Of a DNA stretch of 64,000 nucleotides, positions 2,887 through 55,656 are shown piece after piece. Under the pieces are notes generated by a model that saw only the letters and a list, made by a program, of their open reading frames with translations, was not told the origin of the DNA and did no database searches. The translations under genes and the position numbers were made by a program. The stretch's first letter is position 1, and each line of letters opens with the position of its first letter. The stretch is from Caldisericales bacterium (lineage in GTDB: Bacteria; Caldisericota; Caldisericia; JAAYUI01), in assembly GCA_022707885.1 (NCBI GenBank), contig JAKIZT010000004.1:12243-76242 (forward strand). Direction: 5' to 3'.

Positions 2887-2894
<8 letters not shown>

Positions 2895-10519: not shown

Positions 10520-10670
10520 TGAACATCTCCTTATTTGAACTGGGGTTAACTTACCAAACAATCGTCTTTGTGTCAACGAGAAAGCCATAAAATTCAACAT
10601 TTATAAGAAATAACACCTCCGTTGACTAACAAAGCGATATGGGATAATTTTGCGTTTGGAAAGGGGTAAC

Positions 10671-11285: not shown

Positions 11286-11389
11286 CTGATCAGGCCAAAT
11301 TAAACCGAGCTTAAATACTTTTGACACGATTTCGTGGTTGACTCGTGTGTAAGTATATGTACAAAGAAGTCATCCTTAAAGGAGGCAAA

Positions 11390-14712: not shown

Positions 14713-15911
14713 ACCCTTGTAGACTCAGAAGAGATTTCACAGTCCTGGACAGGGAAAACCCGCCCATTTACCTCGACAACGCCTGCATGACACTAAAACC
14801 CAAACAGGTTGTCGATGCAATGACCACCTACTATGACGAGTACCCGGTTTGCGAGGGAAGATCGGCCCATGCAATGGCAATGAGGCTCGAGCAGGACATG
14901 CTCGCTTCAAGAAGGGCCATAAAAGATTACATCAAGGCAAACCACGTAAACGAGATTGTGTTCACGAGGAACACCTCCGAATCAATAAGCATAGTTTCGT
15001 ATGGTATAGACTGGAAACCTGGCGATATCGTGCTGGTTTCAGACAAGGAACACAATTCAAACTTTGTCCCATGGTTCAGGCTGAAAGAGTGGGGCGTAAA
15101 AGTTATTGTTGTGCCATCCGGAGATGATGGAAGGTTCTCGGTTGACAACTGGGCAAAGGCAATAAAAGAGTCAAAACCAAGACTCATAAGCTTCTATCAC
15201 ACCTCAAACCTCGATGGCGAAACCTCAAGGGTGGCCGAGGTGTGCAAGCTTGGGAAAGAGGCCGGTGCACTGGTCTGCCTTGATGCAGCACAGGGAGCGG
15301 CACATGTCCCGCTCAATGTTCAGGAAATTGGCTGCGATTTCATGGCCATTTCGATCCACAAGATGTGCGGGCCGACAGGCATGGGCGCACTCTATGGGAA
15401 GCTTGAAGAACTCAGGAAACTTAAACCACTGACAACTGGTGGTGGAACAGTATTTTCTGTGACATACGATGAAGTAAAACTGCTTGATCCTCCAAGAAAA
15501 TTTGAGGCAGGACTGCAAAATTATGCCGGCATTGTGGGTGTAAAACCTGCCATAGATTATATCGAATCAATAGGGCTCTCAAACATACACGAGCACGAAA
15601 TTGAACTAAACCAGCACCTGCAAAACCTTCTTGAGGGTATTCCACAAATAAAGATCCTTGGGCCAAAAGACGCCAAGGACAGAGGCGGAATAACAAGCAT
15701 GACGGTCGAAGGCTACAATGTTCACGATCTTGCCATGATCCTTGACGACAGGGTAGGAATAATGCTTAGGGCAGGTTTCCATTGTGTGCACGGCTGGTTC
15801 AACTCAAGGGGAATCGATGGCACATTGAGGGTCTCAACCTATCTCTACAACACAAAAGAGGAGATGGAGATATTTGCCAGCGCCATCAAAGAGATAATCG
15901 CGGAGGAATAA
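14700..15911 (+). CDS. Cysteine desulfurase (class-V aminotransferase, SufS/CsdA-like)
   Basis: 403 aa. The PLP-lysine region ISIHKMCGPTGMGALYG and overall SufS-like length. Confidence 0.85.
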   Translation: MSKIDPCRLRRDFTVLDRENPPIYLDNACMTLKPKQVVDAMTTYYDEYPVCEGRSAHAMAMRLEQDMLASRRAIKDYIKANHVNEIVFTRNTSESISIVSYGIDWKPGDIVLVSDKEHNSNFVPWFRLKEWGVKVIVVPSGDDGRFSVDNWAKAIKESKPRLISFYHTSNLDGETSRVAEVCKLGKEAGALVCLDAAQGAAHVPLNVQEIGCDFMAISIHKMCGPTGMGALYGKLEELRKLKPLTTGGGTVFSVTYDEVKLLDPPRKFEAGLQNYAGIVGVKPAIDYIESIGLSNIHEHEIELNQHLQNLLEGIPQIKILGPKDAKDRGGITSMTVEGYNVHDLAMILDDRVGIMLRAGFHCVHGWFNSRGIDGTLRVSTYLYNTKEEMEIFASAIKEIIAEE

Positions 15912-18900
15912 TGAAAAGATTTGCATCGTTGACACTTGCCATAATAATGCTTGCGACCCTGCTGCCGCTTGCAGGCCAGGTGCAGGCATCGGACTACTCC
16001 TTTGCAGGGCTGATAGAGAAAATAACATCAGAAGCCCCCATGAAATATATTGAAAAACTCTCTTCGAAGGAATTCAGGGGCAGGATGGTTGGCGATCCTG
16101 GAGAGAAGATAACAACGGATTATATCGCCTCATTATACAAATCATTCGGCCTAAAACCGGCAGGCGACGATGGTACATATTTTCAAAACCTCACCACATC
16201 AGTTTTTCTTCCAAAATCACCTGTGGACTTCAGAATGGTTACAGAAGATGGGGGAACAGAGAAACAGTTTGTCTACAAAAAAGACTACAATTTCCTCCAG
16301 GTGACTGGATCAGGCAAGGCAAATGCAGAGGCCATCTTTGCAGGTTTTGGAATATCAACCCAAAAATACAATTACGACGACTACAAGGGAATTGATGTCA
16401 AGGGGAAGATTGTTGCCGTAATAAGGCACGCCCCGGACTACCTCAGGGAGCTGGCTGGTCAAGAAGCAGATTCCCTTATGGCGTTCCAGTACAAGGTAGA
16501 CAATGCAATAGCCCACGGGGCATCTGCCGTTATTGTATTTGAAAACCCAATGCTCCCGCCTGAAAACAGAAGAAACATGAACGATAAGATTGTCAGTGCA
16601 TACCCTTCTTCCATCCCATGTTTTTTTGTCTCTGTGGAATGCTCGAACCAGGTACTCTCAAAATCAGGCCTGACTTCCGAACAGCTATTCAAAAAAATCA
16701 ATGATTCCAAATCTCCTAGTTCTTTCCCGATCAAAAACACAAGGCTCCAGGTTGAAGTTAACGCAGAATTCAATCCTGCATACAAAACCTCCAATGTCGT
16801 CGGCTATATTCCGGCCTCGGACCCGTTTGGTGCGAATGAAACGGTTCTCATAACAGCACATTACGACCACCTCGGTGTGGATGTTGACGGTACCCTTTAT
16901 CCAGGTGCATGCGACAATGCCTCTGGTGTTGCATCAATGCTTGAAATTGCGAGGGCTTTCACGGACAGTGGCCTCAAGCCAAAAATAAACATCTGTTTTG
17001 CAGCGCTTACCGGTGAAGAGCTTGGCCTTGTCGGGGCAAGCTATATGGCCAACAATCCGCCTTTCCCGCTTGACGGAATGACAGTGCTCAACCTTGACAT
17101 GGTCTGCGGGGAACCAAACAGGATCAACCTCTCCATGGATGCCAATTTCACTGATCTTTTTGACAAACTGAAATTTTCCGGGTTAAAGGTCGGCGCCAAT
17201 GTGGGACAGGGGAGACCTGCAAACAACAATGATTCTGCGGCATTTTACGCAAAGGGTGTTCCATCTGTTTTCATATTTGGTGGAAGGGGCATGATGTGGC
17301 ACGATCCGGAAGACACCATAGAACACGTCAATCCAGACGGCCTCCAGCTTTGCACAAGGTTTGCAGCCCTGACAGCGTGTCTCTACGCTGAACCGTTCTT
17401 CCTTGCCCTTGACAACCAGACATTTGAATCTCCAGCGCCTGACTATGTTGTATCAGGCTACACCGGGAGAGGGGCAAGGGTCACTATCGGTGGCAGGCAG
17501 ACAATAGCCTCCGAAACTGGCAAATTCTCCATTCCGGTAACACTTGGCGAAGGCAAGAATGATTTGAAGGTTACGGCCACAAAACCATCGTCCGGTGAGA
17601 AGATCGAAAAAACAATCACTGTTTCGTATATTCTCCAGGCAAAAGCTGAACTTTCCACATCAATGCTGAACTTCGGTTTTGTGACCCAGAGATCAGAACC
17701 AAAAACGATCACATTCACAGTCACAAACACGGGCAAAGGTCCCCTTTCCGGAACATTGAAACCATGCTCTGACTGGCTTGAAATAAAACCGGCCAAACTC
17801 AATCCCGACAAAACCACCGTTGAGGCCACATTGTTACCAAAATGGCTCACCCCAAAAGGTTTCCATGTATGCATGATCCAGATTGAAACATCGGGTGGAA
17901 TGGTTTTTCTGCCTGTAACTGCAGTCACAGGCGAGGAGCCAACTGTAGAGCTTGTCATGACGCCAGGGTCAAAAAGGGTAAAAATCCAGGGCGATGACGT
18001 ACCAGTGAGCCAGGGGTTTGAGGTCGTGTCAAATGCCAACTGCTACCCATCATCTGTCCTTTCGATGTCATTCGGGATGCTTGTAAAAAAAGATGCTGAC
18101 GGGATAAAACTCACCTTCAATGACGAGCAGTACAGGTTGTGGACAGGTTCGGCAGTCGGATTGAAGGGCAACGTGCCGTTTACACTCAAAAAAGAAGTCT
18201 ATGAGAACAAAGATGAGGTAATGCTTCCCGAGAGCCTTCTTGAGATCATGGGCATGGGAATCGAGAAAAAAGAGGGCGGTCAGATTGTAATCACCTATGA
18301 CATATCAAAGGTTGCCCCATTTTCTGCCGAGATTTTCCCGCCGGATTTCATTGAGCTCGAACAAGACACAAAATATTCCAAAGATTTTTCATGGATGACA
18401 CGGCAATATTTCAAGTTCACACCAAACAGGAGTGGACTTTTAAGCTACACTATTCCGGAATGGCTGTACCTGGGTAATTACTACTCTAAGAATTATCCTG
18501 TTGAAAGCGGCAAAACAATTGAAATATGGCCATTTCCCAATAATGCACTCATAAACCAGCTCAAGCCAAAATCTGGAAAAATTGAGTTCTTCATAAACGG
18601 GCATCCCGTCGGGTCAGTTGAAGTGAAACTCAAATACGCAAATACAAAAAGGATAATCTCGATTATAATCGGATCAAAAACCGCCACCATTGATGGAGAG
18701 GAAAAAGAAGTCTCCCCGCCAGCCTTTATAGAAAATGGAACGACTTATGTTCCATACAGATTTATCGGAGAACCTTTCGGCGCAAAGGTGGAATGGGTTC
18801 AACAAACCAGGAGTGTCCGTGCAACAATAGGCACAACCACAATCGAGCTCACCATCAATTCCAAAAAGGCAATCATCAACGGTGTCCCGACAACACTCCA

Positions 18901-21900
18901 GAGCCCGGCAATAATAAAAGATGGAAGAACATTCGTCCCGATAAGATTTATTGGCGAGGCCTTTGGCGCCGATGTGAACTGGGACCAGAAAACAAAAACA
19001 GTCCTTGTAACACTGGATCTTGCAAAAGACAAACCGCTTATGGATGTAGATAAAAACAACATTGATATTCAGTGGCACGATGCAACACCAAACGCAATCC
19101 CGCCAAAAACAACAGTGACAATAGTAAACAAGGGCGGCGGAAAGATAATTTTCAAGGAACCCATTGATACCACAAGCACCATGAAAACAACACACGTTTC
19201 TGTCTCAAAAGAAAAAGTGATCCTTACCCCAATATTTGGAAGCGATCTACCTGTTGAAACAAGTGACACAGCAGTAGTTGTAACTTACAATGGAATTGTA
19301 GGATTAAATCTCAATGTTGGCATCTATCCAAAAGATTCGGTCCTCTTCTCATCAAAAGGAAACTTTTACAAAATCAACGGCTTTGAACAACAGGACCAGC
19401 CAAAGGTGCTCGATGGACTGGTCTCAACATCTATCCTCAAATTCATTTCCTCCTGTGGTGGATCAAGCATTTTTGATCCAACAAGCGGCAACCTTGCAGT
19501 AATTATGAGGGGTAAAACACTTGAGCTTGGCACAAAAACAGGTGACTTCTTCCTTGATGGCACCAAAATGCCATGGAAGTTCAGATATGAGGTAAAAGGC
19601 GAGGATGTTATCTTGCCTTGGGCTTGCCTTTCGCTTGCATTTGGCCTGGAAATAAATGAAAACTACGAGAGCGTCAGGGTCTGGCTCAAGAAAGAACCCC
19701 AGCCCCTTCTTTCACTCGACTGGCCAAGCATTGACCTTGTGAAGATGAACGACAAAAAGGTGGCAAAACCATTTGAGGCAAAGTTGTATCCAATAAGAGA
19801 GGGCGGTAAGTACAGTCTTCTCCAGGACCAGTCACCATACAAGCTTTTCTTCTTCTATTCCAACAACCAGGCATGTGCCAGAATGATACCATCCATTGAG
19901 AGCACCTTCAGAAGGTACAAGGACAAAGGTTTGTCCTGCTATCTTGTGTCAAACTCGATACCAACAGATTCTACAACAGAACAGTTTTTTGCAGGAAACA
20001 GGGACATAATGGAGGGACTCGATGCACTTTCAATAATTGGACTCACCCTGCCAATCATGTTTAATGAAAACGGCGAGATTTGTGAGGATTTCCCTGGCGA
20101 GTCAATTCCAAGACTATATATTATTAATTCCAAAGATGAGCTTGTCTTTGCCCTTCCTGATGTTAACCAGTCCCAGCTTATCTATCTTGAACAGGCTACA
20201 GCTTCTATTTTTGACAACCAGGGTGCCATCCCCCCGGATGTCCTGACAGTGAATGTCTCAAATAAAGGTGGCTCTGCTGGCCAGGGTTCAATAACATCGG
20301 ACTCACCACTGGTCAATGTTCTGACTGGCACTTTCAGGAGCTCACCTGCGCAGGTTTCATTGAGCTTTGATCCGTCAAAAGTGGAACTCAGGAACACGCC
20401 AAATTACACAACCGCAACAGCGACCCTGCTGGGGACAAGCAACCAGGTCGAGATTCCGGTCAGGTGCTGGAATGTTCCGCCTTTCACTGCTTTCTCAAGC
20501 TGGTATGGCGGTTCAAAAACAATAAGGATAAACGGCTCGAATATCAGCATACCTGTCGCTGCCACTGCAGGTGATGACCCGGTTGGACCAATAGGGTTGG
20601 TTGCAAAATCCATAGGCGCAGAAGTGAGAATCCTCTCCAACCAGACGGTCAGGTTTATTGCCGGGCAGAATGAAGCGACAATGTATATTGGGCAAAACTT
20701 CGCCGAATCTGGCGGATCAAAATTCGAGTTTGGCGGTAAATTCTCGATAGAATCAGGAGAAATATATGGCCCTGTAAAATTTCTGTCACAATTTGCAGGG
20801 GCAACCCTCCAGAGTTTTGACGGAACAATAGTTTTATGGGCACCAACAATAAAGGGAAGGGCAACAACCCCACTCCTCTCGGTTGATAAATCCAGTCTGA
20901 TGTTCAATTCATACATCCCGCCAGCAGGTGGTTTCAGGGCAGCACCGGATTTTGAACTCCCAAGCTACCCATACTCCTCGGGGACAAAAACAAAACTCTC
21001 CGAGCTCCTCAAAAAACCGGAAGTACAGGTTGTCATCATTGATTTCTGGGCAACATGGTGCCCACCATGCAAGTCCTCCATGCCCCACTTGGAGAAACTC
21101 TGGAGAAACTACAAAAACAAAGGTCTTGTTGTGCTTGGCGTCATAACCGACCAGGATGAAAAGACAGATGAAGACATTGAGGAAACTCTTACTGAGGATC
21201 CAAGAATCAAGGGTGGCTTAAAATCGCTTGGCCTGGACAAAATAACTTATCCGATGTGCTATGACATCAGGCCAGAACTCAAAACATTCCGCCTTTACGA
21301 AGGAAAAGCAATTCCAAGGCTTGTCGTCATTACAAAAGACATGAAGTGGGCATACACAAATGTGGGCTTCTGGGACCAGGGCGTAAGGAACCTTGAGTTC
21401 AAGGTAAGAAGACTTCTTGGAATTGAAGAAAGTGCAAAAATACCATCCCTCAGCCTTTCAAACATTGGCGTTGGAGAGCTCTCCGGAACAATAACAAGCT
21501 CTCTCCCGTACATAACACCAAAAAATACAAATTTCTCCACCACTGACTCCACTTCAATCGAATTTTCAATCAACACATGGACTGCACCGGTTTACCCAGA
21601 GACAGGGACAATAACCATAGAATCCAATGGTGGGAAATTTGTTTGCGATATTCAATACGATCCAGTTTTTGAAAACAAACCGCTGGAGCTAAAAATTAAC
21701 ACCACTGACAGCTCTCTTACGTTCAACAACCTGAAAACCAAGGTTTCTGTGCCCACAAAAACCTTTGGTGATAAATATCTGGTCGCGATCAATTCACTGC
21801 TCCCGGCACTTGGCGGATCAGCTTCGGTGCTTCCAGACAGAAAAAGGGCACTGGGTCAGTTCGAAACATGGCAGATAAGCGTCGAGCACAACAAAACGGC

Positions 21901-22057
21901 CATATCTGCAGGGCCATTCACTCTGAATGCACAGGCCCCGACAATCATTGAGGGTAGCAACATCTTTGTGGACTTTGAAACACTCTGCGACATAATCGGA
22001 GCAGAAGCATCTTTTGAAAACGAAAACAAAACACTGGTATTGAGGTATGAGATATGA
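15911..22057 (+). CDS. Giant secreted multidomain surface protein: N-terminal M28 Zn-aminopeptidase (with PA domain), Ig-like repeats, CuAO-N stalk repeats, two thioredoxin-like domains (one single-Cys, one canonical WCPPC) and a C-terminal CuAO-N-like domain
   Basis: Likely start MKRFASLTLAIIMLATLLPLAGQVQA (signal peptide) at 15911, overlapping the sufS stop. M28 motifs: ITAHYDHLGVD, ACDNASGVASMLEIARAF, TGEELGLVGASYMA. CuAO-N repeats: YVPYRFIGEPFGAKVEW and FVPIRFIGEAFGADVNWDQKTKTVLVTL. Canonical thioredoxin: VVIIDFWATWCPPCK...IPRLVVI. Degenerate thioredoxin: FFFYSNNQACARM...IPRLYII. Confidence 0.8.
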   Translation: MKRFASLTLAIIMLATLLPLAGQVQASDYSFAGLIEKITSEAPMKYIEKLSSKEFRGRMVGDPGEKITTDYIASLYKSFGLKPAGDDGTYFQNLTTSVFLPKSPVDFRMVTEDGGTEKQFVYKKDYNFLQVTGSGKANAEAIFAGFGISTQKYNYDDYKGIDVKGKIVAVIRHAPDYLRELAGQEADSLMAFQYKVDNAIAHGASAVIVFENPMLPPENRRNMNDKIVSAYPSSIPCFFVSVECSNQVLSKSGLTSEQLFKKINDSKSPSSFPIKNTRLQVEVNAEFNPAYKTSNVVGYIPASDPFGANETVLITAHYDHLGVDVDGTLYPGACDNASGVASMLEIARAFTDSGLKPKINICFAALTGEELGLVGASYMANNPPFPLDGMTVLNLDMVCGEPNRINLSMDANFTDLFDKLKFSGLKVGANVGQGRPANNNDSAAFYAKGVPSVFIFGGRGMMWHDPEDTIEHVNPDGLQLCTRFAALTACLYAEPFFLALDNQTFESPAPDYVVSGYTGRGARVTIGGRQTIASETGKFSIPVTLGEGKNDLKVTATKPSSGEKIEKTITVSYILQAKAELSTSMLNFGFVTQRSEPKTITFTVTNTGKGPLSGTLKPCSDWLEIKPAKLNPDKTTVEATLLPKWLTPKGFHVCMIQIETSGGMVFLPVTAVTGEEPTVELVMTPGSKRVKIQGDDVPVSQGFEVVSNANCYPSSVLSMSFGMLVKKDADGIKLTFNDEQYRLWTGSAVGLKGNVPFTLKKEVYENKDEVMLPESLLEIMGMGIEKKEGGQIVITYDISKVAPFSAEIFPPDFIELEQDTKYSKDFSWMTRQYFKFTPNRSGLLSYTIPEWLYLGNYYSKNYPVESGKTIEIWPFPNNALINQLKPKSGKIEFFINGHPVGSVEVKLKYANTKRIISIIIGSKTATIDGEEKEVSPPAFIENGTTYVPYRFIGEPFGAKVEWVQQTRSVRATIGTTTIELTINSKKAIINGVPTTLQSPAIIKDGRTFVPIRFIGEAFGADVNWDQKTKTVLVTLDLAKDKPLMDVDKNNIDIQWHDATPNAIPPKTTVTIVNKGGGKIIFKEPIDTTSTMKTTHVSVSKEKVILTPIFGSDLPVETSDTAVVVTYNGIVGLNLNVGIYPKDSVLFSSKGNFYKINGFEQQDQPKVLDGLVSTSILKFISSCGGSSIFDPTSGNLAVIMRGKTLELGTKTGDFFLDGTKMPWKFRYEVKGEDVILPWACLSLAFGLEINENYESVRVWLKKEPQPLLSLDWPSIDLVKMNDKKVAKPFEAKLYPIREGGKYSLLQDQSPYKLFFFYSNNQACARMIPSIESTFRRYKDKGLSCYLVSNSIPTDSTTEQFFAGNRDIMEGLDALSIIGLTLPIMFNENGEICEDFPGESIPRLYIINSKDELVFALPDVNQSQLIYLEQATASIFDNQGAIPPDVLTVNVSNKGGSAGQGSITSDSPLVNVLTGTFRSSPAQVSLSFDPSKVELRNTPNYTTATATLLGTSNQVEIPVRCWNVPPFTAFSSWYGGSKTIRINGSNISIPVAATAGDDPVGPIGLVAKSIGAEVRILSNQTVRFIAGQNEATMYIGQNFAESGGSKFEFGGKFSIESGEIYGPVKFLSQFAGATLQSFDGTIVLWAPTIKGRATTPLLSVDKSSLMFNSYIPPAGGFRAAPDFELPSYPYSSGTKTKLSELLKKPEVQVVIIDFWATWCPPCKSSMPHLEKLWRNYKNKGLVVLGVITDQDEKTDEDIEETLTEDPRIKGGLKSLGLDKITYPMCYDIRPELKTFRLYEGKAIPRLVVITKDMKWAYTNVGFWDQGVRNLEFKVRRLLGIEESAKIPSLSLSNIGVGELSGTITSSLPYITPKNTNFSTTDSTSIEFSINTWTAPVYPETGTITIESNGGKFVCDIQYDPVFENKPLELKINTTDSSLTFNNLKTKVSVPTKTFGDKYLVAINSLLPALGGSASVLPDRKRALGQFETWQISVEHNKTAISAGPFTLNAQAPTIIEGSNIFVDFETLCDIIGAEASFENENKTLVLRYEI

Positions 22058-34330: not shown

Positions 34331-34642
34331 TTACAAAAGCTGGCCTTTCGCCCATTCAAGATAGGGCAAATTTACTTCAGAAGGCCCAAAGGTTATTATG
34401 GCCGGTAACTCATAAGGATGATTTTCTTCAACAAATTTTTTCAACTCTTCGACTTTCTGCTCTATTGTCTTGAAGATGACCACGCGCTCGGAATCATGTA
34501 CCAGCTCGCCCTTCCATTCATAGATCGAATCCGACTGGAAGATGTTTGCGCACACGGCCAGTTTTTTTGAAACAGCATTTTTTGCTGCCTGTTCTGCTTG
34601 TGATTTTGTAGGATAGGGACAGTAAACCAGAAACAGGCTCAT
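34331..34642 (-). CDS. cutA: Divalent-cation tolerance protein CutA
   Basis: LVYCPYPTKSQAEQAAKNAVSKKLAVCANI...YEWKGEL is the canonical CutA1 pattern. Start taken at MSLFLV. Confidence 0.7.
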   Translation of the reverse strand: MSLFLVYCPYPTKSQAEQAAKNAVSKKLAVCANIFQSDSIYEWKGELVHDSERVVIFKTIEQKVEELKKFVEENHPYELPAIITFGPSEVNLPYLEWAKGQLL

Positions 34643-36336
34643 GGTGCCGGGTTCGGGTAGGTTATCACAACCATCCTTGCTTCCTGAATCCACTCCACCT
34701 TTGAGCCAAGCTGTTCGGTAACCAATCTTACTGGAACCATCGTGCTTCCCTTGACGATCATTGGCTCCTGGTCAAGCTCGATTTGCTGGCCATTCCTCTT
34801 GGCGGTCTTTTTGCCAATGAAAAGCTCTATGTAAACATCGTTCAATTTGTATGTAACCGTTTCAACTGCCTTGTCCTTCGGGGACCAGTCGACTGTTGCG
34901 CCAAGATGTTCACCAATGAACCTGAAAGGAACCATCGTTCTACCAGTTTTTGAGACAATAAATGGTGGTGTTATATCGACCGGCCACTCAAGACCGTTCA
35001 CAAAAGCCTTCTTTGACCCGACAGTCATCGAAATGACAATCTTGTTTGCCTTGCAATCAACAATGTAGGGGCCGAATTTTTCCTCCTGGCCAAGCTCATT
35101 TTCAACAACAATGTAATATTCGACTTTCTGGCCTGGGGAAAGGTCGATCGGTATCTCAAAATTTCCGTTCTGGTCTGCTTCACCCTTGCTTTCACCCTCA
35201 AGCCCCGATGGAATAAGTTTCCACTTCACGATGACTTTTGAACCAGGGCGGGTTTTTCCTTTGACGATGTGCTTCGAGCCAATAACCTGGACGGGTTGAC
35301 CCTGTGCAGGCCAGCCAGGCAACGTGACCTGTATCTTGCCCGGCCTTGCCTGGACCTGATGGGAACAGGCTACAATTTTGTCAGCATTTCCGATCGAGCA
35401 AATTTTGTATGTGTAGAGTTTGCCGTTGGTTACCGAGGAATCTTCAAAAAACAACGTATCAGTATCTAGAGCAAAATCATGGATTGTTTTAGATTTTTCG
35501 TTTTCAGACTCCCTAAACACCCTGTAACCTGCAATGCCTTCCATTTTTTTGGGTTTGTCCCAGGTGATCTTTATCTTCTCGTCACCCACTATTGCCTTCA
35601 CGTTTGTTGGTGCTTCGTAAGGCTGGAGCCACCCTGTCCCCATGCAATCATAGAGAGCATTTGCAAACAATCTTGAAACTTCAATATTTTCAACAGCCTG
35701 GCCATTCTGGCCTAGGGCTATATAACAGGCCTTTGACTGGGTTATGTTTCTTTTGAAAACCACAGGTACGCCAGAGTTTGTTACAGCAATTGATTTTGTG
35801 CCCGGGTAGAGGGCAGATTTTCTGATTTCACCAAGCGTCACGTCAAAAGATTGGGCAACATCGGAAACTATCGGATCGGTTATGTCTATGACCCTGATCG
35901 TTGTTCTTCCGGCTTTTTCAACATCCATTAGCTGGGCACCGGCAAGTTTCTGAAGGATTGGATTGTTTGAGTCAGGATGGATGACGTCTCCTGAGATGAT
36001 AAGGCCAGAGATACCAAACTTGCACCTGTCTTCAATGAGTGTTTCCACGTCTTCAGGTACATCCAGAACTTGCCCGGCTTTTGTGCATCCAAGCAGGCAA
36101 ATGACGTTGTAGCCATTATATTGAAGTGGCTCCCTGAGCGATGCCGGGGTCACAACGCTAAGATAGGAGGCTATGTTCGGAAAATGCCTTTCAATCTCAG
36201 TCTGGAGCCTTATCCCAAGGTCAGGTGGATTGCTCCATACAAGGATGTCCAGGTATGGCTTCCACTCACCATCGGCAAAAACAACTCCAGAGAAGAGGGT
36301 TACGACGCACAAAAGAAGCAACAAGGCTTTTTTCAC
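34639..36336 (-). CDS. Secreted surface protein with FN3-like domain and two C-terminal CuAO-N-like repeats
   Basis: Signal peptide MKKALLLLLCVVTLFSGVVFA. MVPFRFIGEHLGATVDWSPKDKAV and MVPVRLVTEQLGSKVEW repeats. Confidence 0.75.
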   Translation of the reverse strand: MKKALLLLLCVVTLFSGVVFADGEWKPYLDILVWSNPPDLGIRLQTEIERHFPNIASYLSVVTPASLREPLQYNGYNVICLLGCTKAGQVLDVPEDVETLIEDRCKFGISGLIISGDVIHPDSNNPILQKLAGAQLMDVEKAGRTTIRVIDITDPIVSDVAQSFDVTLGEIRKSALYPGTKSIAVTNSGVPVVFKRNITQSKACYIALGQNGQAVENIEVSRLFANALYDCMGTGWLQPYEAPTNVKAIVGDEKIKITWDKPKKMEGIAGYRVFRESENEKSKTIHDFALDTDTLFFEDSSVTNGKLYTYKICSIGNADKIVACSHQVQARPGKIQVTLPGWPAQGQPVQVIGSKHIVKGKTRPGSKVIVKWKLIPSGLEGESKGEADQNGNFEIPIDLSPGQKVEYYIVVENELGQEEKFGPYIVDCKANKIVISMTVGSKKAFVNGLEWPVDITPPFIVSKTGRTMVPFRFIGEHLGATVDWSPKDKAVETVTYKLNDVYIELFIGKKTAKRNGQQIELDQEPMIVKGSTMVPVRLVTEQLGSKVEWIQEARMVVITYPNPAP

Positions 36337-49347: not shown

Positions 49348-49626
49348 TTAAAGTTTTTTCTGATAGTTGTATGCTAGAACGGCAAGGCCAGTGAACAGCA
49401 ACATGGTGCCAAAGAGCGCCACAACCCATTGCTGGAGGCCATTATATTTCAGGAGTGGCTTGAGACTTGATGCAAGCCCTACTTTGTCTATTCTTGCGGC
49501 ACTCTGCATGCCATCAACCAGCTCGAGCGTCATTATCGCAAGAAAACAGCCAAGTGCAATAAGAACAAGCAGCACCATTACTGCGGTTATTTTCTCTTGC
49601 TTCATTTTTTCTCCTTTGAGAGCCAC
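49348..49626 (-). CDS. Small membrane protein (2 TM), last gene of the Rieske/cyt b/Flx-like operon
   Basis: 92 aa with two hydrophobic helices. Immediately follows the next small ORF and abuts dprA. Confidence 0.4.
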   Translation of the reverse strand: MALKGEKMKQEKITAVMVLLVLIALGCFLAIMTLELVDGMQSAARIDKVGLASSLKPLLKYNGLQQWVVALFGTMLLFTGLAVLAYNYQKKL

Positions 49627-49859
49627 TTGTCAAACAGCTTTACTCTTTTGACTACCTTTCCCCTGTTGTCTTCTGAAGCGTACATTCCAAAAACCAGAAG
49701 AAACATCATGGCCAAAAAGATGAGACCAAAAGCAACAAGCTGGACAAAACCGAATGGACCCAGTTCTCCCAGTACCTTTGCTGTCTGGACGAGCTGTGCA
49801 AGCGAAAGCACTCCAACCAGCAAGGCAAGGATAAAAATCAGGGTCCATTCATTTTTCAC
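49602..49859 (-). CDS. Small membrane protein (2 TM) in the Rieske/cyt b/Flx-like operon
   Basis: 85 aa with two hydrophobic helices and a basic C-terminus. Overlaps the cytochrome b gene by 4 nt. Confidence 0.4.
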   Translation of the reverse strand: MKNEWTLIFILALLVGVLSLAQLVQTAKVLGELGPFGFVQLVAFGLIFLAMMFLLVFGMYASEDNRGKVVKRVKLFDKWLSKEKK

Positions 49860-51328
49860 AGACTTTTTACTCCAAGCGCAAGGGCCTTTTCAGCTCTTTT
49901 TTTTAAGACCCTTCTCCTCCATATATATTCAAGGAAGAAGGCAAGAGCGAACACAAAACCATTGAAAAGGAGTATGGTGTATATGTATATGTTCCTGTCG
50001 GCATCCTTGAATGGTATCCAGTAAGACACCAGAGAGCCTATGAGGAAGAAGGTGAGGCCACCAATTGCAAGTGTTGTATAGGCTGGCCTTCCAGAGGCAT
50101 TTCGTTGCTCCCTCCTGTCAATCCAAGGAAGAGCAACAAGGAACACAATAAATAACACCGTCAGTAATGGCCCGATGGCACCAGGCAAGAACTTGAGATA
50201 GAAGTAGACAAACAGGAAGTACCAGTCTGGCAAGATGTGGTCAGGCGTCTTGACTGTGTTTGGTGGTGGCTCGCTGATTGCAGGCAAATACAATATTGCA
50301 CCAATTATAACAATCGCCAGTATCGCAAACATGACCCAGTTGAGTTTCGGGCGTTTCTTCCTCGACCTGATAAAATATAACTCGGCCGCGAGGAACATGG
50401 CGATCGGCAACAGGTAGTGCAATATATTGAATCTCAGGATTGTTGTCTGGCCAACCTGATGGGCGCCGAGGCCAATAAATTTGAGCGCAGCACCCAAACC
50501 CAAAGGACCAATTCCGGGCAAAAGATCAACTGTGTCAAGCATCTGCGTTCCAACCGTTGTTGCCCAGTAAGATCTCTGGTCAAACGGGAGAAGGTAACCG
50601 GTTACGCCAGAGAATGTTGAAATACAGACAACCAGTGTTGCAATTATCCAGGTCAATTCTCCGGGTTTTTTGAATTCTCCATTGAAATACATCCTGAGCC
50701 AGCGAAGCATGAGCAATGCTATGAAGCAATAAGCACCATACCTGTGTATTCCCCTTATCGTTCTGGTTACTGGGTTGCCCGAGATGTCCGCAACAGATAT
50801 GTACGCTTTTGATACGATGACTCCAAGGTCAGCAACAATTTCCTCCGGGGTTTTGCCTTCCATGGCCAGTATGTCCTTGCGCTGGCTGGTTATCGTTGCC
50901 CACTTGGTATCAACAAGAGCTTTTTCTTCATCTGTAGTAAGGGCAGCTTTTTCTTCATCACGCTGTGTTATTTCTTCCTGCGTGAGGAGCTCGTCCTCTG
51001 TCATCTCGCCAGCATCGATTTTTACTCTGAATTCCTCTGCTTCCTTCATTGCCCCTTCAATGGTAAGGCCATGTCCATACATGACTTTTGAAGGATCAAC
51101 TTTCTCAACAGGCGAGGTATCCGGAACATAATAGAATGTGAGCACGATGCCAACAACCACCTGAAGGATGAGGAGGATGTAGAGCATACCACCAATCCAG
51201 TAAAACGGATTTGATTTTTTCTTTTTTGGTGTTTCTTCATCAAAGATATTGACCTTGAGGCCTCTTATCTTCCACCATCTCATCCATGATTTTGTCAAGC
51301 CGTCAAGCCAGTTTGCAAATTTGTCCAT
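49856..51328 (-). CDS. Cytochrome b (full length, b6 plus subunit-IV regions) with a roughly 110-aa acidic insertion after helix A and apparently only one His-His heme-ligand pair
   Basis: Cyt b helix A NPFYWIGGMLYILLILQVVVGIVLTFYYVP. Helix B RGIHRYGAYCFIALLMLRWLRMYF has His at the first ligand position but Arg at +14. Helix D ILHYLLPIAMFLAAELYF has His at the first position but Tyr at +14. C-terminal PDWYFLFVYFYLKFLP (the PEWY-like motif). Insertion sequence EEFRVKIDAGEMTEDELLTQEEITQRDEEKAALTTDEEKAL. Confidence 0.7.
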   Translation of the reverse strand: MDKFANWLDGLTKSWMRWWKIRGLKVNIFDEETPKKKKSNPFYWIGGMLYILLILQVVVGIVLTFYYVPDTSPVEKVDPSKVMYGHGLTIEGAMKEAEEFRVKIDAGEMTEDELLTQEEITQRDEEKAALTTDEEKALVDTKWATITSQRKDILAMEGKTPEEIVADLGVIVSKAYISVADISGNPVTRTIRGIHRYGAYCFIALLMLRWLRMYFNGEFKKPGELTWIIATLVVCISTFSGVTGYLLPFDQRSYWATTVGTQMLDTVDLLPGIGPLGLGAALKFIGLGAHQVGQTTILRFNILHYLLPIAMFLAAELYFIRSRKKRPKLNWVMFAILAIVIIGAILYLPAISEPPPNTVKTPDHILPDWYFLFVYFYLKFLPGAIGPLLTVLFIVFLVALPWIDRREQRNASGRPAYTTLAIGGLTFFLIGSLVSYWIPFKDADRNIYIYTILLFNGFVFALAFFLEYIWRRRVLKKRAEKALALGVKSL

Positions 51329-51337: not shown

Positions 51338-52186
51338 CTAAAAAGCCGCCGGCATTGCGGCGATCTGGGCTGATGTGAACACCGGGCCGTCCTGGCAGAC
51401 GTAGTTGTGTCCAACATTGCATCTTCCACATTTTCCGCAACCGCAGTTCATTCTGGCCTCAAGAGAAGCAAAAATCTTGTCTTTCGGGAACCCTATCTTG
51501 TCCAGACCAATGAGGGTGAACTTGATCATCACTGGCGGACCTGATATGACAATTGCAGTGTTTTTGAAGCCTGGGTCAATTTCAAACAGCAACCTCGACC
51601 TGTTTTTGAAGTTTGGATCATAATACTGTCCGACAACACCAACATCTTCTTTCCATGTGCTGTCACCCTTGTCGCATGATCTCTTTACCTCAACGTCTTT
51701 TACTTTTGCCCACTCGAAAATCTTGTTTTTGAAGACTTGGTCGGCAGGTGTTTTCGCACCATAGAGTATTTCTATCTTGCCGTAATCAGATCTCTTGTCG
51801 AGGGAATAGGTGAGCATGTTGCTTATGGCCGAGAAACCCACACCTCCGGCCATATAACTTATGTTCATGCCTTTGAGCGCATCCTTCGGGAAGCCGTTTC
51901 CATAGGGCCCCCTCAAAGTGACCCTGTCTCCAACCTTCATCCCATGGAGCTTCTCAGTCACCGCGCCAACTTTCATGATGGTCAGCTCAAGGTGTTCCCT
52001 CTTTGTTGGGGTGTTGCCAATGGATATCGAGCAGTCGCCAACACCAGGAACTCCAATTATGCAGAACTGGCCAGGATTATAGTCAAAATTCCCGCCATCC
52101 CTTTTGATGTAGAAAGTTTTGATATTTGGCGTTTCCTGTTCGATTTTTTCAATTGTGGCCATCTCTGGCAGATACGGGTTCGTCAC
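51338..52186 (-). CDS. FAD/NAD(P)-binding oxidoreductase with C-terminal [2Fe-2S] cluster (sulfhydrogenase gamma HydG / FlxA / AsrB-like)
   Basis: The probable GTG start (52186..52184; RBS GGGAGGT) gives MTNPYLPEMATIEKIEQETPNIKTFYIK. FNR-like FAD and NAD folds. C-terminal CGCGKCGRCNVGHNYVCQDGPVF (2Fe-2S). GTGA overlap with the upstream gene. Confidence 0.7.
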   Translation of the reverse strand: MTNPYLPEMATIEKIEQETPNIKTFYIKRDGGNFDYNPGQFCIIGVPGVGDCSISIGNTPTKREHLELTIMKVGAVTEKLHGMKVGDRVTLRGPYGNGFPKDALKGMNISYMAGGVGFSAISNMLTYSLDKRSDYGKIEILYGAKTPADQVFKNKIFEWAKVKDVEVKRSCDKGDSTWKEDVGVVGQYYDPNFKNRSRLLFEIDPGFKNTAIVISGPPVMIKFTLIGLDKIGFPKDKIFASLEARMNCGCGKCGRCNVGHNYVCQDGPVFTSAQIAAMPAAF

Positions 52187-53214
52187 AGCGCACCTCCCAG
52201 GGTCTTTAGTGTTTCTGAAAGCGAGATCCCTGACGGACAAAGATCAGAACACCTTCCGCATCCAGTGCAGGCAATCTCTCCATAGAGTGTCATGTGGTAT
52301 TGGTACTTGTCGAGAATTTTGTTTCTATAACGTGCGGCAACATCGGGTCTTGGGTTGTGGCCAGATGCCTCAAGCGAATAGACTGTGAAATGGCAGGAAT
52401 CCCAGCACTTGTCCCTGTCGCAGGAGACAGCACCAGTTTTGCGGTCTCTCATTTCAAAACAATGGCAAGTTGGGCAGAAGAACGTGCACACACCACAGGA
52501 GATGCAACCCTGACTCACTTTCTGCCAGATCGGGGACTCATAGAGTTTCATGTACTGGCCAGCTTTTGAAGTGTCCAGTTTGAAAATCATCATCGACTCA
52601 CAGGCCTTTTTGACTTTTTCCTGGGCTGCCTTGGCATCCCCGCCATCTTCGAACATGGATTTATTGGCCTCTATGAAAGCTTTTCCTTTTTCAGTCGAAA
52701 CAACAAGCTGGTATGAGTCACCTTCCGGAACCAGGAGAATGTCAGAGCCAGCTTCAGAAGCCGGGTGAATTCCAAGAGACGAGCAGGCGCATGTTGAGAG
52801 CGGTTTTTCGCAGGCAATTGCAATGATTAGCGTTTTGTCTCTCTTTTCTTTCCAGTATGGGTCCTCAAATGGTTGTTTGCCACCATCCTTGCGGTCTCTT
52901 GCAAGGAAGAAATTGTCCAGTACCTGGATGCCCCTGGCATCACATGGCCTGACCCCAAAAAGGATGGCCGGTTTTGAGGCATCTGCCTGATGAACCTTGT
53001 CGCTTTCTACTTTATATATCAATTCAGTTTGTGGAAAAACCGCTTCTTTGGCTGGTGTTGCAGTCCTTACAGTTTTGAGGTCAATAGATTTTATATCCTC
53101 AACCTTTTTGAAATTTGTGACTGCACCATTCTTTTGCGGGGCATAAACAACATGGGTTTTTCTTGATTCATCAATCAGGGAGAGCATTTTTTCTTTTTTG
53201 ATTTTCATGTTCAC
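52183..53214 (-). CDS. Fe-S subunit of the sulfhydrogenase-beta / AsrA / FlxB family
   Basis: GVRPCDARG N-terminal motif, CISCGVCTFFCPTCHCFEMRD and CTGCGRCSDLCPSG 4Fe-4S motifs. 343 aa. Start overlaps the upstream stop. Confidence 0.7.
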   Translation of the reverse strand: MNMKIKKEKMLSLIDESRKTHVVYAPQKNGAVTNFKKVEDIKSIDLKTVRTATPAKEAVFPQTELIYKVESDKVHQADASKPAILFGVRPCDARGIQVLDNFFLARDRKDGGKQPFEDPYWKEKRDKTLIIAIACEKPLSTCACSSLGIHPASEAGSDILLVPEGDSYQLVVSTEKGKAFIEANKSMFEDGGDAKAAQEKVKKACESMMIFKLDTSKAGQYMKLYESPIWQKVSQGCISCGVCTFFCPTCHCFEMRDRKTGAVSCDRDKCWDSCHFTVYSLEASGHNPRPDVAARYRNKILDKYQYHMTLYGEIACTGCGRCSDLCPSGISLSETLKTLGGAL

Positions 53215-54200
53215 CTCCCCAACACTTCTTCAACTTTATACAGGGCCAGTGGCGTTTTTGCCTTGTCACTGGTGCCTGGTTCAAAGTCCCAGGTTGTTTT
53301 TGTCATATAGCCAAGCTGCTCTGTTATGAGATTGAGCGGGATGCTTTCCGGGCAAGCCCTTGCACATTCACCACAATTTGTGCATCTGTCGGAGAGGTGG
53401 AAGTAGTGGATAAAGTGGTATGTCAGGATCGAGGCAAGGGAAGTTCCCTTTTGAAGATAGGGCTCAGGGAGCTTCGGATAGTCCATGATGCAGTTTGTGT
53501 TGCAGTAGCAACCCGGGCAGGCATCTCTGCAAGCAAAACACATTGTGCACCTTGAAAGCTGGGAGATAATGTATGCCCTGCGCTCCTCGAAAGGCTTCTG
53601 CAGGTATGACTCCATCCACTTTTCCCAGTTTTTGGTAGGTTTTTTCGGCATGTCATCAGGAAGTAACTCGTCAACCTCGAGTGCTGATGTATACGGGCAG
53701 CGTAAGCACCTTGGATCGTAATAATCCGATTTTACCAGATCAGCTTTCTTGCCGTCGAGCATTTCTACATGCAGTGTTGTTCCATCATCAGTGATATTTT
53801 TGATGTCAGAATCAAGACCCGACCTGACAAGATCAATGTCGATAGTGCCAGGGCACTTTACACCAATAACCCAGAGATTGTCCCTGTCAACTTTATTTTC
53901 TGCTACGTTGGCAAGAAGGTTTCTGGAATCACAGCCTTTGACCATGACACCAAACTTCTGCCCCTTCTTTAGTTCAGGTATATAAAATGTTTTTCCACCA
54001 AGGAGTCTTGAAAGGTTCTCTCTTGAAAAGGAATTGAAAACCAGGAGATCTACCTCTTCTGGGGTAGTGGCAACAAATGCCCTGGTTTTTCCAGGCATGT
54101 CAGCGACTTCCCTCCAGCCAAGGAAACCGGCAATTTTTCCTGATTTTATGGCTTCTTTTACGATTTTCCTGAAGTAGGCGAGGGTTTTTTCTGTCATCAT
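53211..54200 (-). CDS. Second HydB/FlxC-like Fe-S subunit (paralogous architecture)
   Basis: GVMVKGCDSRNL (cf. GVRPCDA), CTMCFACRDACPGCYCNTNC (cf. CPTCHCF) and CTNCGECARACPES motifs. 4-nt overlaps with both neighbours. Confidence 0.6.
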   Translation of the reverse strand: MMTEKTLAYFRKIVKEAIKSGKIAGFLGWREVADMPGKTRAFVATTPEEVDLLVFNSFSRENLSRLLGGKTFYIPELKKGQKFGVMVKGCDSRNLLANVAENKVDRDNLWVIGVKCPGTIDIDLVRSGLDSDIKNITDDGTTLHVEMLDGKKADLVKSDYYDPRCLRCPYTSALEVDELLPDDMPKKPTKNWEKWMESYLQKPFEERRAYIISQLSRCTMCFACRDACPGCYCNTNCIMDYPKLPEPYLQKGTSLASILTYHFIHYFHLSDRCTNCGECARACPESIPLNLITEQLGYMTKTTWDFEPGTSDKAKTPLALYKVEEVLGR

Positions 54201-54604
54201 GCTTCCACCCCCATACTATCAAGTTTGCGCTTCATTGCAGAAATCTCTCTTGTCAAAACACCATAATCGAGGGGATCTTTCTGGACGTAGGAGAGCCTTT
54301 CTGGGTCAACACCAAGCGCTTCTGCAACCGACTGTGCTGCAAAAACCCTGCGTTTTGCAAACATGTTTCCATCAAAATTGTGGCAATCGTTGAGAGGACA
54401 ACCATAGATGATGATTGCTCCAACACCCTCCACCAAAGCCTTAAAGGCAACAACAGGATTGAGCCTACCTGTGCAAGAAAGCTTTACAAAGCCAACTTCA
54501 GGAAACTTGTCTTTGTGGTTTTCAAGGTCTTTGCCCTTCAGGGCTGATTCACAATGGAAAACGATTATTTTTCTTTTGATCGGGAGATCTTCTATTGAAG
54601 GCAT
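54197..54604 (-). CDS. Methyl-viologen-reducing hydrogenase delta subunit-like protein (MvhD/FlxD family, [2Fe-2S])
   Basis: 135 aa. KIIVFHCES...KLSCTGRLNP...IIIYGCPLNDCHNFDGNMFAKRRV matches the MvhD/FlpD pattern (C..C...C.P..DCH...GN). Confidence 0.75.
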   Translation of the reverse strand: MPSIEDLPIKRKIIVFHCESALKGKDLENHKDKFPEVGFVKLSCTGRLNPVVAFKALVEGVGAIIIYGCPLNDCHNFDGNMFAKRRVFAAQSVAEALGVDPERLSYVQKDPLDYGVLTREISAMKRKLDSMGVEA

Positions 54605-55656
54605 AAGCCCTTTACCTCCTCGAGTATGACTTTGTTCTCAAAACCTTCCAGGTCAATGACCTGCGGCAGACAGCCAGCAACACAGATTCCACAAGCCTGG
54701 CATTTTTTTCTTACAACAAAAGCAACGTCTTTTGTCTTGTTTCTGGATATATTGAATTTCTTTTGTGTTATCGCGTTCTTCGGGCAAAGTGTAATGCAGG
54801 TGAAACACCCGGAACAACGGACAGGGTCAACAACGGCGGCTGTTTTAATCTTCCTGCCAAAAAATGGCAGTGCAATCAGAACTGCGATGAGGAACCCCCA
54901 GGCACTTGCCGCAATGGTGGGACTGCCAAGTCGTATTGTGAATAGTCCTATCCAGTCGAAAACATATTTTCCAGCCTTGAGATCTGTTTTGCCAGCGATT
55001 GGGAACAGGCCGACAATCACGGCAAGAACTCCAAGGAAAATTAATGAGAGGGCAAACGTTGGGATAACTGGCGGTCTGGAAATCCTGGCAAAATGCCATA
55101 CAAGAAGAGCGAAGACGAGGATTGGAGCTCCAATATGGAACGCCCTGTAAATAACAAGCAGGGCAACCTCCGTTATCTGGCCTCTTCCAAAGAATTTGAG
55201 TATTTCAGACGCCCTTCCATCCATCGGGAGGATGTAGCCTGTTATGGTTATGAGTACTGTGAACACCAGCAGTGCGACACCGACAAACCACCCCACAGAC
55301 CTGGTGCTTGTGTGTCTTTGGGCAAAAAGCTTCCTGAGCATGTGCGCTGCTGCAAAAAGAATCATTGCATCAGCGGCATACCTGTGAAGCGTCCTTATGA
55401 AAAGGCCATAAGGTATTTTGTCCGACATGATGTACATGATTGATTTTTGGGCCTGGTCCAGAGATGGCATATAGAAAAAGCTCAGGACAAAACCTGTCAG
55501 TATCTGGATGAACAACAAAAGGAAGGTTATCGAGCCAAGACTATTGAGAATATTGACCGATTCAAAACCCGCCTTCAGGACATCAAAGATTCCCAATGTC
55601 CCGTTTATGAGAAAATTCAACGGCTTAAAAGGACTATAGGATTTGCTTGGGCTCAT
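54592..55656 (-). CDS. Cytochrome b6-like membrane protein fused to a C-terminal 2x[4Fe-4S] ferredoxin domain
   Basis: Helix A FIQILTGFVLSFFYMPS. Helix B TLHRYAADAMILFAAAHMLRKLF (His, His +14). Helix D AFHIGAPILVFALLVWHF (His, His +14). C-terminal CSGCFTCITLCP ... CQACGICVAGCLP. Start taken at MSPSK (ATGA overlap with the Rieske stop). Confidence 0.7.
   Translation of the reverse strand: MSPSKSYSPFKPLNFLINGTLGIFDVLKAGFESVNILNSLGSITFLLLFIQILTGFVLSFFYMPSLDQAQKSIMYIMSDKIPYGLFIRTLHRYAADAMILFAAAHMLRKLFAQRHTSTRSVGWFVGVALLVFTVLITITGYILPMDGRASEILKFFGRGQITEVALLVIYRAFHIGAPILVFALLVWHFARISRPPVIPTFALSLIFLGVLAVIVGLFPIAGKTDLKAGKYVFDWIGLFTIRLGSPTIAASAWGFLIAVLIALPFFGRKIKTAAVVDPVRCSGCFTCITLCPKNAITQKKFNISRNKTKDVAFVVRKKCQACGICVAGCLPQVIDLEGFENKVILEEVKGLCLQ

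Follow-up and report, generated by a model that had tools for sequence, protein, structure and literature searches.

A cytochrome b–ferredoxin fusion protein as a candidate half of an asymmetric Rieske/cytochrome b complex in Caldisericia

The cytochrome b–ferredoxin gene and its family

The stretch of DNA analysed here, 64,000 nucleotides (nt) of contig JAKIZT010000004.1 from a Caldisericales genome (hereafter the window), contains a nine-gene operon, wholly on the minus strand, whose second gene encodes a cytochrome b with a ferredoxin domain fused to its C-terminus (hereafter cyt b-Fd). The gene order is Rieske protein, cyt b-Fd, MvhD, an FdhB-like iron–sulfur (FeS) protein, a HydB-like protein, a HydG-like protein, a second cytochrome b and two small membrane proteins (Table 1). 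Most of these genes overlap by 4-58 nt, which indicates translational coupling, and the gaps do not exceed 9 nt. The operon is syntenic in all Caldisericia loci (10 species) and in divergent lineages at ~33% identity, and the Rieske gene lies beside cyt b-Fd in all of the Caldisericia loci.

The open reading frame (ORF) of cyt b-Fd runs from 55656 to 54592 on the minus strand and encodes 354 amino acids (aa), exactly where an earlier sequence-only reading of the window had placed it. Its ATG at 55656 is preceded by an AAAGGTG Shine-Dalgarno sequence and lies 2 nt past the Rieske stop codon; a longer ORF reaching up to 55713 is unlikely, as it would overlap the Rieske gene. Six hydrophobic helices stand ahead of the FeS domain, and the heme ligands are H91/H105 in helix B and H174/H188 in helix D, both with the H+14 spacing, so that the four-His pattern described in that reading was found as such. 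It had also described two CxxCxxCxxxCP motifs, the first of which is exact (C281-x2-C-x2-C-x3-C291-P), while in the second (C319-x2-C-x2-C-x3-C329) L-P follows rather than P directly. The ferredoxin (Fd) domain comprises about 74-80 aa and is joined to helix F by a linker of ~12 residues (GRKIKTAAVVDPVR). Pfam Cytochrome_B matches residues 33-146 at 88.5 bits (cut-off 27.2), and Fer4_9 and Fer4_7 match residues 280-330, barely over their cut-offs; these two matches, together with eight Cys invariant among homologs, confirm that the fused dicluster Fd is real. The protein is predicted to bind two b hemes through its four invariant His and two [4Fe-4S] clusters through its eight invariant Cys.

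With two bis-His heme sites and a b6-like 14-residue spacing in helix D, cyt b-Fd fits the cytochrome b/b6 family of Rieske/cytochrome b complexes (PF00033). It is not cytochrome b6 proper (PetB): helices E-F are fused on, the Cys of heme cn is replaced by Ser (LNSLGS versus FYCIGG), and the NCBIfam model PRK03735 scores 90.6 bits against a cut-off of 325. The earlier label "b6-like" could thus be kept for the heme-binding core, and had to be given up for the rest of the protein, which has no heme cn Cys, carries helices E-F and possesses a short cd loop. The cd segment counts 28 residues versus 46 in most of the family (18 fewer), and cyt b-Fd lacks a complete quinol-oxidation (Qo) site, here understood as a full cd loop plus a PEWY-type motif.

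An AlphaFold2 model, a check suggested with the first reading and here built with the family alignment, recovered the cytochrome b fold (pLDDT 80.4, pTM 0.76). Foldseek aligned it with bc1 cytochrome b at probability 1.0 over ~285 columns (TM score ~0.5) and with b6 chains over ~200 columns, and the six helices correspond to helices A-F of solved cytochromes b. These have their N-terminus on the N (cytoplasmic) side, where helix F also ends. Topology was taken from this homology, as a crude positive-inside count on the loops favoured neither side (9 versus 9 Lys plus Arg). Since helices A-F are six and the N-terminus is on the N side, the Fd domain should be cytoplasmic, as had been proposed; cyt b-Fd has no export signal and its partner proteins are of cytoplasmic types.

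The fusion is widely conserved. A database protein in Caldisericia metagenome-assembled genomes is 100% identical to cyt b-Fd, 13 homologs match it in length and architecture at 59-76% identity, and those further away (26-36% identity) still contain both the cytochrome b and the Fd part. The gene occurs in 10 species-level Caldisericia/Caldisericales genomes at 59-100% identity, several of whose isolate names indicate sludge digesters or an anaerobic membrane bioreactor. All four His and eight Cys are invariant in an alignment of 32 sequences extending down to 26% identity. A profile search of 1.84 billion representatives yielded 874 clusters at E<=1e-30, a count of clusters at 50% identity, so that the family has at least this number. 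Most of the best 150 of the 874 align across both parts, and after removal of the window's own cluster, all 12 ligands could be found in 140 of the 149 representatives and the four heme His in at least 148 of them, a conservation that is far beyond chance. In many relatives MvhD is fused on the same chain: 41 of the 149 are 420-600 aa long, 92 reach at least 600 aa with an extra uncharacterised region of ~170 residues, and the single-chain fusion of cytochrome b, Fd and MvhD is present in dozens of relatives. No natural tandem fusion of two cytochromes b was detected when those members of the family that gave two matched stretches, or no Fd match, were inspected.

Several more distant members of the family lie in other genetic settings. 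Outside Caldisericia, the triple fusion of cyt b-Fd with MvhD stands amid heme-copper oxidase genes in three loci (L001, 8001-13434, annotated as Steroidobacteraceae; L007, 4677-16790; L008, 4793-10027). L001 and L007 contain COX1, a second COX1-like gene (469-498 aa), SCO1 and UbiA, with CtaG in addition in L007, as well as another cytochrome b fused to Fer2-FAD-NAD (643 aa) or flavodoxin-FAD-NAD (827 aa) modules; L008 contains only COX1 and SCO1, on the opposite strand. This combination of triple fusion and heme-copper oxidase looks uncharacterised. The triple fusions are followed by a conserved ORF of 167-173 aa without a Pfam match (L001, 9579-10100; L007, 9805-10308; L008, 9506-10027), which has an N-terminal helix and a conserved Cys pair; the extra C-terminal stretch after FlpD in forms of ~690 aa is of similar size and may be this ORF fused on. 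In one further member (P0150, 676 aa), a SCO1/SenC domain (copper chaperone, thioredoxin-like) is fused N-terminally to cyt b-Fd, which fits the oxidase-linked context of the proteobacterial forms.

Table 1. Features of the operon and of its two cytochromes b (window coordinates).
Feature	Coordinates	Strand	Evidence or remarks
Rieske [2Fe-2S] protein, 194 aa	55659..56243	-	Pfam Rieske 35.7 bits; twin-arginine motif TRRELLK, N-terminal anchor helix
Cytochrome b part of cyt b-Fd (residues 1-270)	54847..55656	-	Transmembrane helices A-F, H91/H105/H174/H188, short cd loop, FDWI in place of PEWY
C-terminal 2x[4Fe-4S] Fd domain of cyt b-Fd (residues 275-354)	54592..54834	-	C281/284/287/291 and C319/322/325/329; like the HdrA C-terminal Fd
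MvhD/FlpD-type [2Fe-2S] protein, 135 aa, Cys 18/44/69/74	54197..54604	-	Pfam FlpD 74.5 bits; 5odc_D E 8.5e-13
FeS protein, 329 aa, 15 Cys, FlxC-like position	53211..54200	-	Pfam Fer4 families; 7bkb_E E 3e-19, 9t1s_M, 8rvu_E
HydB/ShyB/AsrA-like polyferredoxin, 343 aa, FlxB-like position	52183..53214	-	Pfam Fer4_22 96.8 bits; sulfhydrogenase I beta 9nez_B E 6.4e-47
HydG/AsrB-like FAD/NAD(P) protein, C-terminal [2Fe-2S] motif, 300 aa, FlxA-like position	51338..52240	-	Pfam FAD_binding_6, NAD_binding_1, DHODB_Fe-S_bind; 9nez_C E 1.3e-48
Second cytochrome b, full-length (490 aa), with b6 and subunit IV parts in one chain	49856..51328	-	H195/H304 kept, full cd loop, PDWY; R209 and Y318 at N-side ligand sites
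Acidic Cys-free insertion of ~115 aa in the P-side A-B loop of the second cytochrome b	50774..51121	-	Variable; up to ~300 aa in other Caldisericia
Small two-helix membrane protein 1, 85 aa	49602..49859	-	Conserved C-terminal motif EDNRGKVVKRVKLFDKWLSKEKK
Small two-helix membrane protein 2, 92 aa (GTG start) or 85 aa (internal ATG)	49348..49626	-	Conserved behind the long cytochrome b in other loci

The second cytochrome b, the Rieske protein and the cytoplasmic chain

The first reading of the window took in neither the second cytochrome b without N-side heme ligands nor the two small subunits, which together give the larger picture of the operon. This long cytochrome b still has both P-side heme ligands, H195 as the first His of helix B and H304 as that of helix D; the second His of each helix is replaced, by Arg209 and Tyr318 respectively, and there is no other His in those helices. 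The resulting H-R-H-Y/F pattern (hereafter HRHY) is shared by every lineage examined, and it stands together with PDWY in the window, in loci L004 and L011-L018, in all Caldisericia orthologs and in all of the 22 nearest homologs in the databases (E<=1e-51). Among 101 more distant database matches, 99 show the canonical HHHH and one is gapped at the first position, and two added reference cytochromes b are also HHHH. Every H-R-H-Y/F cytochrome b whose context was read is adjoined by a cyt b-Fd gene. The two cytochromes b of the operon, neither of which has the heme cn Cys, share just ~28% identity over helices A-C, from which they are taken as old paralogs and not as a recent duplication. With all four His kept and the Qo region truncated, cyt b-Fd appears as the mirror image of the second cytochrome b. 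The insertion in the A-B loop of the latter is variable, extending to ~300 aa in other Caldisericia, where the protein has 665-709 aa, and it might offer the missing Rieske partner a place to dock.

A different organism carries a related set (L006, 2019-9548), in which a cbb3-type oxidase, cytochromes c, Rieske, the HRHY cytochrome b, two small ORFs, cyt b-Fd and MvhD form one string without HydB/HydG-like genes. The long cytochrome b has the same ligand pattern there, with SDWY for PDWY, and the string would represent an aerobic or microaerobic version of the asymmetric complex proposed below.

In the Rieske protein, box I is C134-T-H136-L-A-C139 and box II is C152-R-C154-H155-D-G157-F-F159, and the best NCBIfam matches are the b6f and bc1 Rieske subunits, under the cut-offs. 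Gly157 and Phe159 sit where high-potential Rieske proteins have the Ser and Tyr that raise their potential. The PDWY motif has been associated with menaquinone and low-potential Rieske systems (PMC4122944).

On the cytoplasmic side, the best solved relative of the Fd domain is the C-terminal Fd domain of HdrA (5odc_A, 551-649, E 1.3e-8). The NCBIfam HdrA2 profile matches this domain with its positions 571-638 and the next gene, MvhD/FlpD, with its positions 649-773, so that the Fd domain and the MvhD gene, which overlaps the cyt b-Fd gene by 13 nt, are together colinear with the C-terminus of HdrA-MvhD fusion proteins. The HdrA cluster near MvhD has reportedly been assigned to the C-terminal domain of HdrA by Wagner et al. 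(2017). Such fusion proteins have been described (PMC5296606, PMC12054007), and in a crystal structure the [2Fe-2S] cluster of MvhD lies within electron-transfer distance of an HdrA [4Fe-4S] cluster (PMC5861303). Further along the operon, the C-terminal half of the 329-aa FeS protein resembles the FeS part of the beta subunit of F420-type formate dehydrogenase (FdhB), which occurs alongside MvhD in solved Fdh-Hdr complexes. The HydB-like protein matched ShyB (1.3e-57), HydB (1.3e-50) and AsrA (7.7e-46) in NCBIfam, every one under its equivalog cut-off, and it aligns with the FlxC-like protein at the cluster motifs alone, the two not being close paralogs. The HydG-like protein, whose true start may be a later ATG, finds its match in sulfhydrogenase I gamma (9nez_C). 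For every contact along the cytoplasmic chain, solved complexes offer a parallel: HydG with HydB, FdhB with MvhD and MvhD with HdrA. The wire from the N-side heme through the Fd to the MvhD and HydB-like proteins, as the sequence-only reading had sketched it, is therefore supported by topology, by the fusions of MvhD onto the cyt b-Fd chain, by the colinearity with HdrA, by synteny and by the gene overlaps.

The two small membrane ORFs at the end of the operon are below usual gene-calling attention. They are conserved behind the long cytochrome b in five other loci (L019, L004, L020, L021 and L006), and for this reason they are likely extra subunits of the complex. Neither heme c motifs nor cytochrome c domains were found in the operon; hdrABC genes are absent from the operon and from the window ORFs scanned, and promoter, terminator and Rfam scans around the operon gave nothing useful. 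A search of the rest of the window for quinone or heme genes brought up only housekeeping and surface proteins.

In a divergent Caldisericia lineage, the operon is directly followed by a surface protein of ~900 aa (L004, 10194-12905; L020, 10596-13310; L021, 9613-12336) with PQQ_2 beta-propeller repeats and a Cu_amine_oxidN1 domain. In the window, a 2091-aa ORF (15782-22057, plus strand) encodes an M28 peptidase together with a PA domain, a thioredoxin-like AhpC/Redoxin domain and Cu_amine_oxidN1 in three copies, and two further Redoxin proteins of secreted type lie at 10650-11285 and 11345-12151. Large proteins with terminal Cu_amine_oxidN1 domains are encoded at 2887-5565, 5653-8601 and 34639-36336 (all minus strand), one with a C25 peptidase and one with a glucodextranase B domain. 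Cu_amine_oxidN1 looks like a recurrent cell-surface anchoring module in the source organism.

Proposed electron path and competing readings

With moderate confidence, we read cyt b-Fd as half of a Rieske/cytochrome b complex of asymmetric build in Caldisericia, which would connect a Qo site with cytoplasmic NAD(P)(H). The two different cytochromes b could pair via the normal dimer interface to form a heterodimeric b/b' core, in which quinol would be handled at a single competent Qo site formed by the long cytochrome b and the Rieske protein. The low-potential electron would then cross the bridge between the P-side hemes (bP to bP') into cyt b-Fd, move down to the N-side heme bN', and exit the membrane via the fused Fd, the [2Fe-2S] cluster of MvhD, the FdhB-like and HydB-like FeS proteins and finally the HydG-like FAD/NAD(P) protein; no Q cycle would operate in such a complex. 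The electron would have to cross to cyt b-Fd because the long cytochrome b has neither heme bN nor a quinone-reduction (Qi) site, and a b/b' heterodimer is the simplest reading since a homodimer of the long cytochrome b would leave the P-side hemes without an exit.

As to direction, electron flow from quinol to NAD(P)+ is weakly favoured, by a bifurcation in which one electron would go to the Rieske protein and an outer acceptor and one to NAD(P)+; the proposal made for the anammox complexes offers a precedent. The loss of heme bN would remove the leak of electrons to quinone reduction on the N side, which supports bifurcation; this leak is the largest problem for NAD(P)H production according to the authors of the anammox study (PMC12954380). 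The most complete form of the proposal, which is put forward more tentatively, is that of an obligate natural heterodimer, in which one cytochrome b provides Qo without bN or Qi, the other provides both hemes with a degraded Qo and an FeS exit, the bP-bP' bridge is the sole path, the Q cycle is abolished, and bifurcation is coupled to NAD(P)+ reduction via an MvhD/Flx-like wire.

A number of points weigh against this proposal. The Rieske protein is probably of the low-potential type, so that NAD(P)+ reduction against the membrane potential would have little to drive it. An acceptor for it, cytochrome c or cupredoxin, could be found neither in the operon nor in the rest of the 64-kb window, and for hosts living in anaerobic digesters a high-potential oxidant is not obvious. 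The pairing of b with b' is read from complementary losses and gene linkage, and NAD(P) is suggested as the cytoplasmic substrate by domain homology. Furthermore, cyt b-Fd of the L006 type has a full-length cd loop, so that the loss of Qo is not universal in partnered forms.

The same wiring could also run in reverse, so that NAD(P)H would be oxidised and its electrons would pass via the FeS chain, bN', bP' and bP to Qo, reducing menaquinone or the Rieske protein and an external acceptor. This possibility is somewhat doubtful, if nearly as likely as bifurcation, and it would provide an electron sink for a fermenter. Box II of the Rieske protein without the Ser/Tyr hydrogen-bond donors, as in the low-potential type, and the association of PDWY with menaquinone are consistent with it; the membrane potential favours outward electron movement, and the disposal of NADH matters in anaerobic digesters. 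The proteobacterial cytochrome b modules fused to NAD(P)H-type flavoreductases beside heme-copper oxidases likewise suggest flow from cytoplasm to membrane. Nevertheless, an N-side Qi would suffice for NAD(P)H:quinone reduction, which would leave it unexplained why the Qo-bearing subunit has lost bN in every lineage. In L006, the Rieske, HRHY cytochrome b, cyt b-Fd and MvhD genes come directly after those of the cbb3 oxidase and cytochromes c, which implies quinol oxidation there. To our knowledge, all characterised Rieske/cytochrome b complexes normally oxidise quinol, and a reversed flow would run contrary to this.

It is unlikely that cyt b-Fd works on its own as a membrane anchor in the manner of NarI, HdrE or QmoC, forming its own homodimer with the MvhD/FeS/flavoprotein module and exchanging electrons directly with quinone, with the Rieske protein and the long cytochrome b belonging to a separate enzyme. 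Most family members, the triple and longer fusions, have no Rieske gene, a full-length cd loop and an xDWF motif, and could bind quinone themselves; Kao and Hunte likewise report no Rieske protein in those clusters (PMC4122944). In the window, however, cyt b-Fd is short of the 18 cd-loop residues that build the Qo pocket, a homodimeric long cytochrome b would be a dead end with no exit from its P-side hemes, the HRHY cytochrome b was never seen apart from cyt b-Fd in the contexts read, and the nine operon genes are tightly packed and mostly overlapping.

Cytoplasmic substrates other than NAD(P), such as sulfur compounds via the sulfhydrogenase-like pair, are improbable as well. The more specific idea, that the HydB/HydG-like pair is the catalytic end of a quinol-dependent sulfur reductase acting on polysulfide, elemental sulfur or, via an AsrC-like partner encoded elsewhere, sulfite, has a still smaller chance. 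It would agree with the best family matches, which are the beta and gamma subunits of sulfhydrogenase and the anaerobic sulfite reductase subunits AsrA/AsrB, with the sulfur reductase activity that the Pyrococcus sulfhydrogenase is said to have (Ma et al. 1993), and with the respiration of sulfur compounds by the cultured relative Caldisericum exile. All of the family scores, however, are under the equivalog cut-offs, the HydG-like protein has a recognisable NAD-binding domain, no siroheme AsrC-type gene is present in the operon or window, and sulfur couples are of low potential and would not need a Rieske-based bifurcation.

That the fusion is an assembly or frameshift artefact uniting two separate genes can be dismissed: nothing was found in its favour, the same architecture at 59-100% identity recurs in independent assemblies from many samples, including the 10 species-level Caldisericia genomes, and the search for homologous fusions proposed with the first reading found the fusion to be common, in most of the 874 database clusters.

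Relation to known systems

The bare fusion of cytochrome b, FeS and MvhD was already recorded in 2014, when Kao & Hunte (Genome Biol Evol, PMC4122944) devoted three sentences to a "PDWF-FeS clade", comprising cytochromes b of Magnetospirillum and Turneriella with 4Fe-4S and MvhD domains and that of Alicycliphilus, which is joined to a ferredoxin/flavin reductase; a Rieske protein is absent from the cluster. They concluded that whole cytochrome b subunits can belong to other bioenergetic complexes (PMC4122944). Like this clade, to which it is homologous (E 1e-20 to 1e-27), cyt b-Fd of the window has a C-terminal 4Fe-4S dicluster domain. Whereas the clade has a fused MvhD, PDWF and no Rieske gene, the window has a separate, overlapping MvhD gene, FDWI, a short cd loop, a Rieske gene 2 nt away and a second cytochrome b without N-side heme ligands. 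The same survey noted a Pyrobaculum cytochrome b without one bH ligand and discarded every cytochrome b short of any of the four His (PMC4122944); the HRHY partner would have been invisible to it because of this filter, and surveys that filter out ligand-deficient cytochromes b would in general have missed the partner subunit.

In the literature, no functional study of the family of cytochromes b fused to Fd, MvhD or flavoreductase (at least 874 clusters) was found, and nothing relevant connects Caldisericota with cytochrome b or Rieske proteins. A Rieske protein and cytochrome b together with MvhD or sulfhydrogenase appeared in unrelated co-mentions only. The Caldisericia operon, the HRHY cytochrome b and its pairing with cyt b-Fd were not found described in the literature searched, subscription journals (such as those with the BBA reviews by Dibrova et al. 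and ten Brink et al.) lying outside the search.

Like the anchors NarI, HdrE, DsrM and QmoC, cyt b-Fd would use two stacked b hemes to carry electrons across the membrane, with a quinone site at one end and FeS subunits in the cytoplasm at the other. QmoC is itself a fusion of FeS and cytochrome b, and QmoB carries an MvhD-like domain. Unlike the NarI-type anchors, which have the unrelated fold of the NarI family and no Rieske protein, cyt b-Fd belongs to the cytochrome b/b6 family and is accompanied by one.

In domain and family matches, the cytoplasmic chain can be likened to FlxABCD-HdrABC of sulfate reducers (Ramos et al. 2015) and to HdrA2: a protein binding FAD and NAD(P), a pair of FeS proteins and one of MvhD type feed a dicluster Fd that is like the C-terminal domain of HdrA, and the Flx-like genes follow the order D-C-B-A in the Caldisericia operon. 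Unlike those systems, the operon has neither the HdrA flavin domain nor HdrBC, and a membrane cytochrome b takes the place of the bifurcating flavoprotein. Thermotoga NSR belongs to a different enzyme family.

The anammox complexes R/b-2 and R/b-3 (Kustd1480-85, Kuste4569-74; Kartal et al. 2013; Hauser et al. 2025, PMC12954380) likewise combine a Rieske protein, a b6-type cytochrome b and an FeS/FAD NAD(P) reductase in one operon, and for them it has been proposed that quinol bifurcation yields NAD(P)H through an FeS wire starting at the N-side hemes (PMC12954380). They are modelled as homodimers that keep hemes bN and cN, with a predicted extra heme b, a GltD/NfnB-like reductase and multiheme c subunits. 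By contrast, the Caldisericia operon has two different cytochromes b, the Qo-bearing one without heme bN, no c hemes, and a wire made of the fused Fd, MvhD, FdhB-like, HydB-like and HydG-like proteins. The anammox Rieske proteins are of high potential (+303 and +335 mV), that of Caldisericia probably of the low-potential type. If the proposal is true, the operon would be a compact example, without c-type cytochromes, of the anammox idea that quinol bifurcation feeds NAD(P)H, in which the N-side leak is solved structurally via the removal of heme bN.

The asymmetric design with two cytochromes b is the part that would surprise a specialist. Reviews describe Rieske/cytochrome b complexes as homodimers, in which the purpose of the heme bL-bL bridge is "unclear but intriguing", and inter-monomer bL-bL transfer supports catalysis and growth in engineered cross-inactivated bc1 (PMC7908018, PMC4152375, PMC4330944). 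The closest likeness is to such cross-inactivated or fused bc1 heterodimers from the Osyczka and Daldal laboratories (PMC4330944, PMC4152375), in which one monomer gives Qo, the other gives the N-side exit, and the bL-bL bridge is required. Those enzymes are laboratory constructs with a Qi exit, whereas the asymmetry proposed for Caldisericia would be natural, fixed in two paralogous genes and provided with an FeS-wire exit. So far the bridge is obligatory just in engineered enzymes; if our reading holds, Caldisericia would possess a natural version, reached by complementary losses in two paralogs.

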